Source: an archaeon
GTDB taxonomy: Archaea > Aenigmatarchaeota > Aenigmatarchaeia > CG10238-14 > SCSR01
Assembly: GCA_035288545.1 (NCBI GenBank)
Contig: DATEAB010000045.1
Location: 1,329-65,328, forward strand
Reading direction: 5' to 3'
DNA length: 64,000 nt
The notes under the pieces were generated by a model that did no database searches, was not told the origin of the DNA, and was given only the letters and a program-made list of their open reading frames with translations. Made by a program: the position numbers and the translations under genes. How positions within the stretch are numbered: position 1 is the stretch's first letter; every line of letters starts with the position of its first letter. This document shows, in pieces, positions 8,222 through 62,330 of this stretch.

Positions 8222-8509
8222 TTATTTCACCAATTTCTCTATTTTGTCCGCTAAATTGAAATCTTTTTCCGTCAGCCTGCCCTCGTCGTGCGTTGTCAAG
8301 TTCAGCTGCACCGTATCGTACTTGATCAGGATATCTGGATGATGATTGCTGTTTTCCGCTACAGCAGCGACTCGTGTGACGAACCACATCGCTTCAATGA
8401 AGGTTCTGAATTTGAAAACTTTCCAAATCTCTTTTCCCTTCAGCTTCCATCCTTGCAATTTTTTCAATTCTTCATTAATTTGTTTTTTTCCGTATCTCAT
8501 GAGAGCCAC
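8222..8509 (-). CDS. Pterin-4a-carbinolamine dehydratase (PCD/DCoH)
   Basis: 95 aa. FKFRTFIEAMWFVTRVAAVAENSNHHPDILIKYDTVQLNLTTHDEG matches the PCD fold signature (E...HHP...W). Confidence 0.78.
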   Translation of the reverse strand: MALMRYGKKQINEELKKLQGWKLKGKEIWKVFKFRTFIEAMWFVTRVAAVAENSNHHPDILIKYDTVQLNLTTHDEGRLTEKDFNLADKIEKLVK

Positions 8510-8615
8510 AGGTGGGAATTGAACCCACGACCTTCCGCTTACATTCCGCTCGATTTCTCGATGGGCGGGTGCTCTTTGTTGCGTTTTTTCAACGAACCAA
8601 CTGAGCTACTGTGGC
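8504..8615 (-). tRNA. tRNA with apparent insertions in the D-loop (~20 nt) and anticodon region (~19 nt); anticodon not resolved
   Basis: Minus-strand read: GCCACAG-TA-GCTCAGTTGGT[TCGTTGAAAAAACGCAACAA]AGAGC-A-CCCGCCCATCGAGAAATCGAGCGGAATGTAAGCGGA-AGGTC-GTGGGTTCAATTCCCAC-CTGTGGC-T. Acceptor, D stem, T arm and discriminator are canonical. The anticodon arm cannot be folded without removing an insert. Confidence 0.5.
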
Positions 8616-13851: not shown

Positions 13852-13947
13852 GGGACAGTAGCTCAACCCGGGAGAGCAACTGATGATGAATCAGCTCTAT
13901 ATCGCCTGAAGAGCGATGTGTTCGGAGTTCAAATCTCCGCTGTCCCA
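13852..13947 (+). tRNA. tRNA-Phe(GAA) with a ~22-nt insertion between the D stem and the anticodon stem
   Basis: GGGACAG-TA-GCTCAACCCGGGAGAGC-[AACTGATGATGAATCAGCTCTAT]-ATCGC-CTGAAGA-GCGAT-GTGTT-CGGAGTTCAAATCTCCG-CTGTCCC-A. The anticodon arm is a perfect stem with the classic Phe loop CUGAAGA. The insert position (about 25/26) is non-canonical. Confidence 0.75.
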
Positions 13948-14005
13948 TACTTTTAACGGGCAAAATAAAATAAGTAAATAGAAAAATGGAACGAGTTGAA
14001 AAGAA

Positions 14006-14578
14006 ATGCAGGAAAAAATTTTGGAAGGAGAATTAATTGAAAATCGCGTGATACTTTGGGATAGCGAAGCTGTCAGCATTTACGACGAGAACGGTTATGG
14101 GAAGCCGCTGCCTGAAGAAAAACCAAATCGCGTCGAACTTGAGCTGATTGAAGCAGTTTACCTTGTAGAGAAAGAGAAGTTGAAAGTTTTTGTGAAGGAA
14201 GAGGGTAAGAAAAAAAAGAAAGAAGTTGAGTTTAAAGAGTTGTTGGAGATAGGAAGCAAACAGGTGAACGAATTTCATCCGCAATTCATAGTTTTTCGCG
14301 ATTTGCGCGAGCGCGGCTACTTGGTCAAATCAGGGTTCAAGTTCGGCACCCACTTCCGATTGTACGAACGCGGTGTGAAGCTGAAAAGAGGGCCGAAGGA
14401 GGCAGGCGAGCACACAAAGGCCGTCGTGCATGCGGTTCCTGAAGAGGCTGCGTTCAGTCTTCCTGAGATGTCCCGTGCAGTGCGGCTTGCCCACAACATT
14501 CGAGCGACTTTCTGGTGGGCTGTTGTTGATCGTGAAGGCAGTGTAACGTATTACGAAATAAAGAGGCTTACTCCTTGA
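14006..14578 (+). CDS. endA: tRNA-splicing endonuclease EndA
   Basis: 190 aa. FRDLRERGYLVKSGFKFGTHFRLYERG...AVVHAV...RLAHNIRA aligns with the archaeal EndA catalytic domain (catalytic Tyr/His/Lys context). Immediately downstream of the intron-bearing tRNA-Phe. Confidence 0.85.
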   Translation: MQEKILEGELIENRVILWDSEAVSIYDENGYGKPLPEEKPNRVELELIEAVYLVEKEKLKVFVKEEGKKKKKEVEFKELLEIGSKQVNEFHPQFIVFRDLRERGYLVKSGFKFGTHFRLYERGVKLKRGPKEAGEHTKAVVHAVPEEAAFSLPEMSRAVRLAHNIRATFWWAVVDREGSVTYYEIKRLTP

Positions 14579-18920: not shown

Positions 18921-19015
18921 TGGGTCCGCAGAGAATTGAACTCTGTTCTTCACCGTGCTCCCAATGTTTCTTCCAATGTTGTGAGGGTGACGTCCTACCG
19001 GTAGACTACGGACCC
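18921..19015 (-). tRNA. tRNA, probably Val(CAC), with a ~24-nt insertion in the anticodon loop
   Basis: Minus-strand read: GGGTCCG-TA-GTCTACCGGTAGGAC-G-TCACC-CTCACA[ACATTGGAAGAAACATTGGGAGCA]C-GGTGA-AGAA-CAGAGTTCAATTCTCTG-CGGACCC-A. The TCACC/GGTGA stem encloses a 31-nt loop. The loop begins CUCACA (anticodon CAC if the intron is at 37/38). The 5' end overlaps the stop codon of the adjacent CDS by 10 nt. Confidence 0.55.
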
Positions 19016-21989: not shown

Positions 21990-22265
21990 CAGAAGGCGCG
22001 CCGCAAGTGGATACAGACCTCCAGAGCAGTTAACCCGCATATCCTTCTCCATCATGTATCCTTCAAGCATCAAAACAACTAACTTATCCTTGCTCGGTTC
22101 CCCGCCTAGGGAGGTTCGATAATTGCCTGACCCTGTAGGGCATGACTTCTCAGTCGGAAACACGGACTGCGCTACAGGTTTTGCATCGCCTCTTGGCTTC
22201 AGTCGAGCATGTAGGCCATTTCTCGATTAAGGTGAGGCCTAGCCACCCCGCTTAGCCCTCTGCAT
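21990..22265 (-). ncRNA. GC-rich structured RNA, candidate signal recognition particle (7S) RNA
   Basis: The interval has no credible ORF and is locally GC-rich. The minus strand reads, 5' to 3': an Alu-domain-like GGUGGCUAGGCC and CCUGUAGCGCAGUCCG, then a helix-8-like CUAGGCGGGGAACCGAGCAAGGAUAAG (GGAA tetraloop plus AGCA asymmetric loop). The ends can pair (GCAGAG/CUCUGC). Strand and ends are tentative. Confidence 0.35.
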
Positions 22266-50987: not shown

Positions 50988-51119
50988 TGCAGGGGGCGAG
51001 ATTCGAACTCACGAACGGACTAACCGACAGCGTTTCTTATTTCATCTTTTCATCAAAGCTCAAATTTCTGTTTTGAAAACTTGAGCGCTGCCCCTTTGAC
51101 CAGACTTGGGTACCCCTGC
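50988..51119 (-). tRNA. tRNA-Leu(CAA), class II, with a ~46-nt intron at the canonical 37/38 position
   Basis: Minus-strand read: GCAGGGG-TA-CCCAAGTCTGGTCAAAGGGG-CAGCG-CUCAAG[46 nt]A-CGCTG-TCGGTTAGTCCGTTC (variable arm)-GTGAGTTCGAATCTCGC-CCCCTGC-A. The anticodon loop reads CU-CAA-G before the intron. Confidence 0.72.
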
Positions 51120-51873
51120 GTGAATCATAGTAAGATTCTGGGTTTATAAAACCCTTTAAAATTTTAATTCTTTCATTTAAGGTAGTTTTTGGTGGAACAT
51201 AACCGAACTTTTTCCATATAGATACTTTTGTTTGATGGACAGGATTTTTTGTGCCGATTAAATTTAACCATTTTTGAATGGAACTTTTTTCATTAATTTC
51301 AAAAATATAAACAGGATTTTTATCATTTTTCCAATTAAAAGGACTTGGATTGGAATGTTTTATTCCAATATTCTTAGATAAAAACTTAATATCATCAATA
51401 AGTCTTTTCGAAATACATGCTATTCGTATTCTTGGTCTTACATGAAAACTACTTTTTCTTTTTGGATTCGGATCCCTCATAAAATAAATCGAACCATCTG
51501 TATCAAAAATTCCTCTTAACAATGGAATAAAATATTTTTTATTTCTTTTAAACTTGTCTGGAATGAAGGTTCGCGATGCTTTTTCGCCTTGTAACATTCC
51601 TAGTTCTAAAAATTGTTTAATTATTTCTTTTTTATATATTCCAACCCCATAAGTTCTCCAATATAAAAAAGATCTCGGCTGTAAATCTATTTTCAATTCT
51701 TTTCTAATCAAAGGTGCTAGATGATTATCATAATATTTCTTATCTTCTGTTAAGTTACCTGTAATAAAAAGATTTTTTCCATTAGATTGTATCCACCCAT
51801 CTCCAATAATAGATCCACAAATTTCGCTAATTCCTCTTGTGATTTTCATATTTTTATTTTGCACAGTATTCAA
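51037..51873 (-). CDS. LAGLIDADG homing endonuclease (double-motif, I-DmoI-like)
   Basis: 278 aa, very AT-rich. Two motifs, ICGSIIGDGWI and LLRGIFDTDGSI. The ORF continues on the same strand through the 5' exon of tRNA-Leu, and its stop lies inside the tRNA intron. Confidence 0.7.
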   Translation of the reverse strand: MNTVQNKNMKITRGISEICGSIIGDGWIQSNGKNLFITGNLTEDKKYYDNHLAPLIRKELKIDLQPRSFLYWRTYGVGIYKKEIIKQFLELGMLQGEKASRTFIPDKFKRNKKYFIPLLRGIFDTDGSIYFMRDPNPKRKSSFHVRPRIRIACISKRLIDDIKFLSKNIGIKHSNPSPFNWKNDKNPVYIFEINEKSSIQKWLNLIGTKNPVHQTKVSIWKKFGYVPPKTTLNERIKILKGFINPESYYDSRRGTQVWSKGQRSSFQNRNLSFDEKMK

Positions 51874-53121: not shown

Positions 53122-53233
53122 TGCGCCAGCCGGGATTTTCAGGGCGAACCTTTTGAACCCGGGTCTCGGCCGTGGCAGGGTTCTACTGCCATTATCTGGC
53201 ATCCGTATCTTAACCAGGCTGGACTACTGGCGC
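53122..53233 (-). tRNA. tRNA with expanded D-loop, ~16-nt insertion in the anticodon region and ~16-nt insertion in the T-loop; anticodon not resolved
   Basis: Minus-strand read: GCGCCAG-TA-GTCC-AGCCTGGTTAAGATAC-GGAT-G-CCAGATAATGGCAGTAGAACCCTGCCACGGCCGAGAC-CCGGG-TTCAAAAGGTTCGCCCTGAAAAT-CCCGG-CTGGCGC-A. Acceptor and T stems are perfect. The T loop is 23 nt instead of 7 and reduces to TTCAAAT once the insert is removed. Confidence 0.5.
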
Positions 53234-53675: not shown

Positions 53676-53781
53676 AGCCTCGGAAGGGATTTGAACCCTT
53701 GACCTTCTGCTTACGAAGCAGTTGAGCTCACAATTTTTTCCATTTTTTGTGATTTGCTCTACCGAACTGAGCTACCGAGGC
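53676..53781 (-). tRNA. tRNA-Thr(CGT) with a ~31-nt insertion between the D stem and the anticodon stem
   Basis: Minus-strand read: GCCTCGG-TA-GCTCAGTTCGGTAGAGC-[AAATCACAAAAAATGGAAAAAATTGTGAGCTC]-A-ACTGC-TTCGTAA-GCAGA-AGGTC-AAGGGTTCAAATCCCTT-CCGAGGC-T. The insert carries an internal inverted repeat TCACAA/TTGTGA and ends with a GAGCTC duplication of the D-stem junction. Confidence 0.62.
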
Positions 53782-62209: not shown

Positions 62210-62330
62210 AGTCCCGTCGTCTAGTGGCCAAGGACATGAGGCTTTGGACTTTTGGTCACAAAGCTCTGATTGCGAGATGAAGCAGAAAGGAAGATCCCTC
62301 AAAACGTCGGTTCGAATCCGGCCGGGACTA
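62210..62330 (+). tRNA. tRNA-Gln(TTG) with a ~47-nt insertion in the anticodon loop
   Basis: AGTCCCG-TC-GTCTAGTGGCCAAGGAC-A-TGAGG-CTTTGGA-[47 nt]-CCTCA-AAAC-GTCGGTTCGAATCCGGC-CGGGACT-A. Perfect anticodon stem TGAGG/CCTCA. The loop CUUUGGA is the canonical Gln(UUG) loop. Confidence 0.65.

Follow-up and report, generated by a model that had tools for sequence, protein, structure and literature searches.

The 64,000-nucleotide stretch analysed here (the window; contig DATEAB010000045.1) carries seven tRNA genes, which together hold nine introns, one or two per gene, and a gene for the tRNA-splicing endonuclease EndA. Its archaeal marks are the signal recognition particle RNA at 21990-22262, both topoisomerase VI subunits (A and B) and ribosomal protein S17e, and the nearest EndA homologues come from Candidatus Aenigmatarchaeota (74-89% identity); the host is a tiny archaeon of the DPANN group (Diapherotrites, Parvarchaeota, Aenigmarchaeota and Nanoarchaeota, plus Nanohaloarchaeota), a member of the Aenigmarchaeota from a groundwater metagenome. 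The identical EndA protein is recorded on ENA ERZ28563803 scaffold_948 (75 kb), as well as in assemblies made independently from related samples. Base-for-base copies of the tRNA-Thr(UGU), tRNA-Phe and tRNA-Val genes exist in three to four other assemblies, so the introns of these genes are not an assembly artefact.

Run without introns, ARAGORN reports no tRNA in the 64 kb; its intron mode gives five tRNA genes, two of them mis-assigned, and a lowered threshold (-ps80) was discarded because its 117 calls were essentially noise. At the gathering score Rfam returns two tRNAs, Thr(UGU) and Gln, and permissive E-value filters add tRNA-Val above that score (52.8 bits) and a partial match just below it (27.3 versus 29 bits). 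The covariance model did not align the inserts as D-loop or variable-loop expansions, the outcome against which the preliminary description of this DNA had set its own proposal of introns, and instead left large insertions unaligned (insert states of 21-51 nucleotides, nt, in the two gathering-score hits). Gene and intron bounds were set by reading the sequence and by scanning for bulge-helix-bulge (BHB) motifs, with the following result.

8504-8615, minus strand: tRNA-Thr(UGU) gene (Rfam 45.7 bits, insert states of 21 and 25 nt; BHB scan, shuffles, ARAGORN on the spliced product)
8576-8595, minus strand: tRNA-Thr(UGU) intron 1, 20 nt, at 20/21 in the D loop, relaxed HBh' motif
8544-8562, minus strand: tRNA-Thr(UGU) intron 2, 19 nt, at 33/34
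13852-13947, plus strand: tRNA-Phe(GAA) gene (BHB scan, shuffles, ARAGORN on the spliced product)
13879-13900, plus strand: tRNA-Phe intron, 22 nt, at 26/27
18921-19015, minus strand: tRNA-Val(CAC) gene (Rfam 52.8 bits, BHB scan, shuffles, ARAGORN on the spliced product)
18956-18979, minus strand: tRNA-Val intron, 24 nt, at 37/38, imperfect BHB
50988-51119, minus strand: tRNA-Leu(CAA) gene (ARAGORN with introns, BHB scan, shuffles, call on the spliced product)
51034-51079, minus strand: tRNA-Leu intron, 46 nt, at 37/38
53122-53233, minus strand: tRNA-Gly(GCC) gene (BHB scan, shuffles, ARAGORN on the spliced product)
53181-53202, minus strand: tRNA-Gly intron, 22 nt, at 29/30, relaxed BHB
53136-53151, minus strand: tRNA-Gly intron, 16 nt, at 59/60 in the T loop
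53676-53781, minus strand: tRNA-Thr(CGU) gene (BHB scan, shuffles, ARAGORN on the spliced product)
53722-53753, minus strand: tRNA-Thr(CGU) intron, 32 nt, at 27/28, strict BHB with central helix GAGC/GCTC
62210-62330, plus strand: tRNA-Gln(UUG) gene (Rfam 48.1 bits, BHB scan, shuffles, call on the spliced product)
62248-62295, plus strand: tRNA-Gln intron, 48 nt, at 37/38, strict BHB

Six of these nine introns occupy non-canonical positions (20/21, 26/27, 27/28, 29/30, 33/34 and 59/60). The inserts noted in the preliminary description, in Phe, both Thr, Gly, Leu, Gln and Val, are all present where it placed them; its count of six tRNA genes must be corrected to seven, the number that its own list names. 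A T-loop motif scan of the window for further tRNA genes (8 matches found versus 4.8 expected, which is within chance) added none, its two extra matches both falling within open reading frames (ORFs).

The scan took a BHB to be a 4-bp helix formed by the four nucleotides that lie upstream of each 3-nt bulge, the cut falling behind the second nucleotide of the bulge, a geometry and a cut rule that agree with those in PMC5829648. In each case the intron carries a 4-nt complement of the exon just 5' of the 5' cut; in tRNA-Phe, for example, the 3' strand of the D stem pairs with an intron-borne complement in the central helix AGAG/CTCT. Both bulges lie at the junctions that the cloverleaf requires in all nine introns, the central helix is fully paired in six of them and paired at three of its four positions in the other three, and five introns have a strict or near-strict BHB (Gln, Thr(CGU), Thr(UGU) 33/34, Phe and Gly 59/60). 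Folding of each exon-intron junction, a check that the preliminary description had proposed, thus gave a BHB or a relaxed BHB at nine of nine. When the junctions were held where the cloverleaf fixes them and each intron was shuffled 20,000 times, the observed central and inner helices were matched in 0-2.5% of shuffles. Once the introns had been removed in silico, ARAGORN in its intron-less mode called all seven genes as full cloverleaves with the expected anticodons (unspliced, 0/7).

Relatives provide an independent view of the same junctions. Their syntenic loci, designated by L numbers, were anchored on EndA and on the radical S-adenosylmethionine gene beside the Gly/Thr pair. The spliced products of the window match intron-less orthologues in register for Phe (L004, L005 and L007), Thr(UGU) (L004 and L005) and Gly (L169 and L171); the Gly D stem is odd (GTCC/AGAT), and the same stem is seen in the intron-less L169 and L171 genes. 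At Thr(CGU), L169 reads through the 27/28 junction without an intron and has one at 37/38 instead. Homologous introns at one position retain their helices through compensatory changes, as in the inner helix of the Thr(CGU) 27/28 intron (TCACA/TGTGA in the window, GACA/TGTC in L171, GAGA/TCTC in L168) and in the Gly 29/30 intron that the window shares with L168. Judged by their sequences, the nine inserts are BHB-type, protein-spliced archaeal tRNA introns, and the earlier reading of them as mostly non-canonical introns is borne out by the BHBs, the restored cloverleaves and the intron-less orthologues.

The 37/38 introns of Leu, Gln and Val occur in all close relatives examined; the distant tRNA-Leu of L178 is intron-less, and the tRNA-Val orthologues of L003 and L005 have 13-nt introns, likewise at 37/38. 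The Gly 59/60 T-loop intron is identical in the window and in L168. Elsewhere the distribution is patchy:

tRNA-Phe in the window, L088 and L001: intron at 26/27
tRNA-Phe in L002: introns at 26/27 and 39/40
tRNA-Phe in L081: introns at 9/10 and 59/60
tRNA-Phe in L004, L005, L007, L016, L019 and L039: no intron
tRNA-Gly: two introns in the window, three in L168, none in L169 and L171
tRNA-Leu in L171: an extra strict BHB intron at 8/9
tRNA-Thr(CGU) in L168: an extra intron at 8/9

The three introns of the tRNA-Gly gene in L168 (8452-8611), the closest relative, measure 48 nt at 29/30, 22 nt at about 46/47 and 16 nt in the T loop, the first of them lengthened by an internal GGCAGTAGAAA repeat. 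Intron positions in relatives thus include 8/9, 9/10, 39/40 and about 46/47, and the same tRNA is interrupted at different places in genomes whose proteins are 80-90% identical. Intron gain and loss are rapid in this lineage. We also observed that the tRNA-Phe introns of the window and L088 differ at a single bulge nucleotide, while the exons differ at several positions.

The endonuclease gene and its most distinctive segment are placed as follows.

14006-14578, plus strand: EndA (tRNA-intron lyase), 190 amino acids (aa), single unit (Pfam PF02778 and PF01974, TIGR00324)
14375-14407, plus strand: L3 loop of EndA, residues V124-G134, GVKLKRGPKEAGEH

The protein matches both EndA domains and passes the equivalog model (Pfam E-values of 2.2e-14 and 1.4e-25; TIGR00324 at 96.9 bits against a cut-off of 59.6). 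The best sequence match is the alpha4 EndA of Methanocaldococcus jannaschii, and the best fold match of an AlphaFold model is 1a79 (TM-score 0.84). Two catalytic residues, Y120 and H136, are kept, at a spacing of 15 residues versus 9 in M. jannaschii. The loop between them, GVKLKRGPKEAGEH, aligns without gaps to the specific loop VIPKKGKRSEREH of the catalytic (alpha) subunit of the broad-specificity EndA of Nanoarchaeum equitans; the enzymes of M. jannaschii, Methanopyrus kandleri and Aeropyrum pernix have 6-8 residues fewer at this site. Its basic residues are K125, K127, R128 and K131, of which K125, R128 and K131 are invariant in the clade alignment. The arginine that clamps the bulge base (R280 in Archaeoglobus fulgidus, R327 in M. 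kandleri) corresponds to the invariant R160 in the motif AVRLAH, and the clade alignment as a whole shows the protein to be under strong constraint. Hirata 2012 (PMC3488258) proposed that an enzyme might attain broad specificity through the basic residues of the N. equitans loop. Kaneta 2018 (PMC5829648) named the loop L3 and reported, for several DPANN lineages, alpha4-type enzymes with L3 alongside a marked increase of disrupted tRNA genes. The suggestion of the preliminary description that this EndA may have broad specificity draws support from the L3 match to N. equitans, a likeness of sequence, and it fits the published pattern because Kaneta 2018 links L3-bearing alpha4-type DPANN enzymes to disrupted tRNA genes.

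EndA was also said to lie directly beside a tRNA gene, and we confirmed this: its ORF starts 58 nt past the end of tRNA-Phe. A tRNA-Phe gene directly upstream of EndA is conserved in Aenigmarchaeota, Nanohaloarchaea and other DPANN, also where that gene is intron-less (L004, L005, L007, L016, L019 and L039). Since intron-less tRNA-Phe genes keep this neighbour too, the adjacency is uninformative about the intron; it is an old inherited gene order, unrelated to introns.

With one N-terminal and one C-terminal domain in 190 aa, the protein is not of the fused alpha'2 or epsilon2 architecture (290-390 aa), and each close relative has a single EndA gene of 186-202 aa. Three other Aenigmarchaeota carry two EndA units in tandem (L028 9446-10510, L033 3143-4225 and L034 985-2007); their upstream unit is degenerate, and the canonical lysine position is intact in neither unit. 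EndA architecture therefore varies within the phylum. At residues 33-42 (14102-14131) the window protein has a 4-residue extension relative to M. jannaschii (GKPLPEEKPNR), whose K-P-x-R aligns with K44-P45-R46 at the start of the Crenarchaea-specific loop of A. pernix; P40 and R42 are invariant. We rejected the presence of the Crenarchaea-specific loop itself, since only these four residues align, to the start of that loop, and the lysine is not conserved in the clade.

Taken together, we think it very probable that these are ordinary protein-spliced tRNA introns, unusually dense and spread over many positions, in a DPANN aenigmarchaeon whose L3-bearing EndA acts as a single homotetrameric enzyme. 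The pre-tRNA would fold at each junction into a 4-bp helix with a 3-nt bulge at either end, in two cases in a relaxed form only; EndA would cut after the second nucleotide of each bulge, as the mechanism of the family suggests, and an RNA ligase would presumably join the exons. The EndA of the window is most likely the sole splicing endonuclease, presumably a homotetramer, and the basic loop beside the catalytic histidine (K125, K127, R128 and K131) probably confers tolerance of relaxed motifs and odd positions.

Several observations on the tRNA side weigh against this interpretation. Excision of the nine introns in the cell is something that we infer from sequence. The Leu and Val introns each have one central-helix mismatch, and the motifs of Thr(UGU) 20/21 and Gly 29/30 either lack an outer exon helix or have one of 1 bp, which is why we class these two as relaxed HBh'. 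Whole-molecule minimum-energy folds predict the BHB for some introns only, and for Leu and Gln a rival helix beats it. Finally, the anticodon loop of spliced tRNA-Thr(UGU) (8544-8563) reads CCUGUAA, with C33 in place of the near-universal U33, and no other splice register yields U33. The corresponding loop in L004 and L005 is CUUGUAA, and the C33 version of the window recurs identically in three other assemblies. Both the C33 and the failure of standard finders to detect most of the genes could indicate decaying pseudogenes, with functional tRNAs encoded elsewhere or imported, yet we regard this as very improbable: all seven exon sets form intact cloverleaves with conserved identity elements, the exons are conserved while the introns vary, stem changes are compensatory, a BHB is found at every junction, and in relatives no copy is visible other than the one at the same locus. 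Less probable still, to the point of being barely credible, is that the inserts stay in the mature molecule and structurally expand its D loop, T loop or anticodon stem. Their raw extra length would fit such a view and nothing further does; retained inserts would break the anticodon stem (29/30), the junction of D arm and anticodon stem (26/27 and 27/28) and the T loop, and these inserts are absent from orthologues and bracketed by splice motifs.

On the enzyme side, the Tyr-His-Lys triad is incomplete, and this counts against the interpretation preferred here: Ala167 (14504-14506) stands at the position of the canonical catalytic lysine, where the window protein reads NIRA versus (S/T)(V/T)RK in M. 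jannaschii, ARMAN-2, M. kandleri, A. pernix and N. equitans. The alignments to these five solved enzymes are gap-free at the lysine site, which is flanked by the conserved R.AH motif, and the counterparts of A167 are K156 in M. jannaschii, K282 in ARMAN-2 and K334 in M. kandleri. All 19 close homologues aligned have the alanine; A, S or T occupies the site in about 40 DPANN loci with the long loop or a shorter basic loop; and among the nearest 150 cluster representatives (50% identity) about 13-16 lack the lysine, all of them with Tyr and His. In the EndA of Methanosarcinales and other Euryarchaeota the lysine is kept. The substitution K334A kills M. kandleri EndA, and the triad is described as well conserved and essential (PMC5829648). 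For the L3-like loop of ARMAN-2, importance for activity was not shown (PMC3488258). A tblastn search with EndA found no second copy in the 64 kb of the window; a partner may be encoded elsewhere in the genome. It may be, then, that the introns are real and the 190-aa protein is one subunit of a heteromer, or is aided by a second enzyme, with the partner supplying the lysine or a structural role. The replacement of the lysine throughout the clade, the use of an alpha-beta heterotetramer by N. equitans, which has the same loop (PMC6379350), the tandem units of L028, L033 and L034 and the 64-kb scope of the search all fit such an arrangement. We nonetheless consider it unlikely, if by no means negligible: known EndAs hold the three catalytic residues within one subunit, and such DPANN enzymes are classed as alpha4 by Kaneta et al. 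(both PMC5829648); close relatives possess a single gene; and the Tyr, the His, the bulge-binding Arg and strong constraint on the protein are all retained. Returning to the single homotetrameric enzyme, EndA without the canonical lysine is probably active, because most tRNAs need splicing and the protein is strongly constrained. We speculate that the role of the lysine has probably passed to one of two basic residues that do not vary in the clade: K131, within the loop, or K138, which follows the histidine by two residues.

Beside the tRNA-Leu gene lies a further element that may bear on how such introns spread.

51037-51849, minus strand: LAGLIDADG homing-endonuclease-like ORF with two LAGLIDADG motifs (Pfam PF14528, 8.8e-8)

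This ORF sits between a promoter-like box of tRNA-Leu and tRNA-Leu(CAA) itself. Its 3' end reaches 83 nt into the tRNA gene, the last 27 or so codons running through exon 1 and the stop codon lying in the intron, and its G+C content is 27.5%, versus 42-43% in the flanks. At the tRNA-Leu loci of L168 and L169 there is no such ORF and only a 120-nt spacer. The box itself, TTTAAATTTTTAA, is conserved among relatives. The family has 82 detectable homologues in DPANN; of seven further members looked up, six stand at a recognisable tRNA-Leu(CAA), and the seventh, in L180, precedes a Leu-like 3' part that is heavily disrupted. In L175 (1460-2268) and L176 a homologue (48% identity) lies inside tRNA-Leu(CAA), within a 703-nt BHB intron at 30/31 that has a central helix CGCA/TGCG, bulges GG/A and AT/A and a 13-bp inner helix; removal of this intron and of a canonical 20-nt one leaves an 86-nt tRNA-Leu(CAA). 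We rejected a group I intron here, as Rfam gave no group I match at E<=0.1; rRNA genes are the hosts of all archaeal group I introns so far described (PMC6125680). L177 has a 20-nt BHB intron at 30/31 that holds no ORF, with the LAGLIDADG ORF upstream of the tRNA, and L174 has a 31-nt insert in the 30/31 region of tRNA-Leu, its exact junction and motif not pinned.

Two further loci show the association with other tRNA genes. In L171 (7180-8140 and 18048-18810) one LAGLIDADG ORF ends in exon 1 of tRNA-Leu and a second, divergent one adjoins tRNA-Gln. Upstream of the first stands an isolated 15-nt copy of the 5' end of tRNA-Leu; we discarded it as a candidate exon 1 and take it for a remnant, there being no BHB. 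In L081-L083 (L081 1262-2032) a divergent LAGLIDADG ORF lies between tRNA-Phe and EndA, its frame open through the whole tRNA. The tRNA-Gln of L171 and the tRNA-Phe of L081, next to these ORFs, have extra introns that the window lacks (the exact junction of the extra tRNA-Gln insert is not pinned). A search for a BHB bracketing the ORF gave only AT-rich noise in the window, L171, L172, L174, L177, L178, L180 and L081, so at these eight loci the ORF is not within an intron. It is conceivable, and we offer this tentatively, that the tRNA introns of the clade are at least partly mobile DNA, with LAGLIDADG homing endonucleases as the agents of spread; if the ORF decayed after homing with co-conversion, the rapid and patchy gain of short introns would be explained. 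The link between the endonucleases and intron gain is put forward purely as a hypothesis. In the literature searched, we came across no account of an archaeal tRNA intron with a homing-endonuclease ORF.

The Leu and Gln introns share a second kind of element.

51042-51064, minus strand: element in the tRNA-Leu intron, with TTTGAGC at 51058-51064, TTGA at 51053-51056 and AAGATGA at 51042-51048
62257-62280, plus strand: element in the tRNA-Gln intron, with CACAAAGCT at 62257-62265, CTGA at 62266-62269 and GATGA at 62276-62280

In the minimum-energy folds of both introns a 5'-proximal stretch pairs with the anticodon loop, in competition with the BHB. Relatives conserve this guide-like stretch and the (C/U)UGA, 4-6 nt and GAUGA that follow it, whereas the remainder of the intron differs in length among them; L174 shows one compensatory change. 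In both tRNAs the nucleotide 5 nt upstream of the UGA box is the partner of nucleotide 34. By analogy, the element resembles one half of a methylation guide of the box C/D type directed at nucleotide 34, and in particular the D'/C' half of the guide that euryarchaeal pre-tRNA-Trp introns carry. A search of the Leu and Gln introns for a full box C/D RNA found no terminal C and D boxes and no Rfam match. As a separate observation, the tRNA-Phe intron contains CUGAUGAUGA, reminiscent of overlapping D-box and C-box motifs.

The window adds a very intron-dense new member to the class of DPANN with a loop-bearing, single-unit EndA. Standard tRNA finders under-count the tRNAs of such genomes, which affects completeness estimates. 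An EndA without its lysine in a splicing-dependent DPANN clade would mean either that the catalytic lysine has been relocated, perhaps to the L3 loop, or that the mechanism is less rigid than thought. Differing intron positions at 80-90% protein identity constitute natural experiments on intron gain and loss, and homing-endonuclease genes in or beside the same tRNA genes suggest a possible mechanism of intron spread, a link that we did not find in the literature searched. If true, a homing origin would make the old question of how archaeal tRNA introns arose directly testable.

The introns and EndA of the window form a system of known kind, that of DPANN with an L3-loop EndA and disrupted tRNA genes, in a variant form, since the EndA lacks a defining catalytic residue. 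With the single-unit L3 enzymes of other DPANN (PMC5829648) it shares a gene of about 190 aa, the insertion between Tyr and His and many non-canonical or multiple introns; the triad is called well conserved there, whereas here the lysine is alanine. In the part of that text used here, Aenigmarchaeota are mentioned only where 'DPANN' is spelled out. The alpha subunit of N. equitans (NEQ205, PDB 3IEY) has a loop of equal length, in which K93, K94 and R97 match K127, R128 and K131 of the window. That enzyme differs in being a heterotetramer with beta, in an alpha subunit without most of the N-terminal domain, in keeping the lysine (STRK) and in acting mainly on split tRNAs. The alpha4 enzyme of M. 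jannaschii (PDB 1A79) shares both domains and is the best full-length match in sequence and fold, but it has narrow specificity, no 6-residue loop insertion and a lysine in SVRK.

ARMAN-2 (Micrarchaeum) is likewise a member of DPANN with a 59/60 T-loop intron (in tRNA-Cys; in Gly here and in Phe in L081) and an L3-like loop; its EndA is a three-unit epsilon2 enzyme of 390 aa whose specificity comes from K161 of the ASL loop, which has no counterpart in the window EndA. The Thermoproteales and other members of TACK (Thaumarchaeota, Aigarchaeota, Crenarchaeota and Korarchaeota) have many introns, at sites such as 20/21, 26/27, 29/30 and 59/60, with relaxed BHBs and fast turnover, as found here, although their EndA is an (alpha-beta)2 enzyme and bears its specificity loop (L1, the Crenarchaea-specific loop) in the N-terminal part. 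In archaeal rRNA introns with LAGLIDADG ORFs, lastly, the ORF is intron-borne, whereas in the window it lies outside the tRNA, with no bracketing BHB; L175 and L176 resemble them more closely, in that a BHB intron holds a related ORF, the host gene being a tRNA rather than an rRNA.

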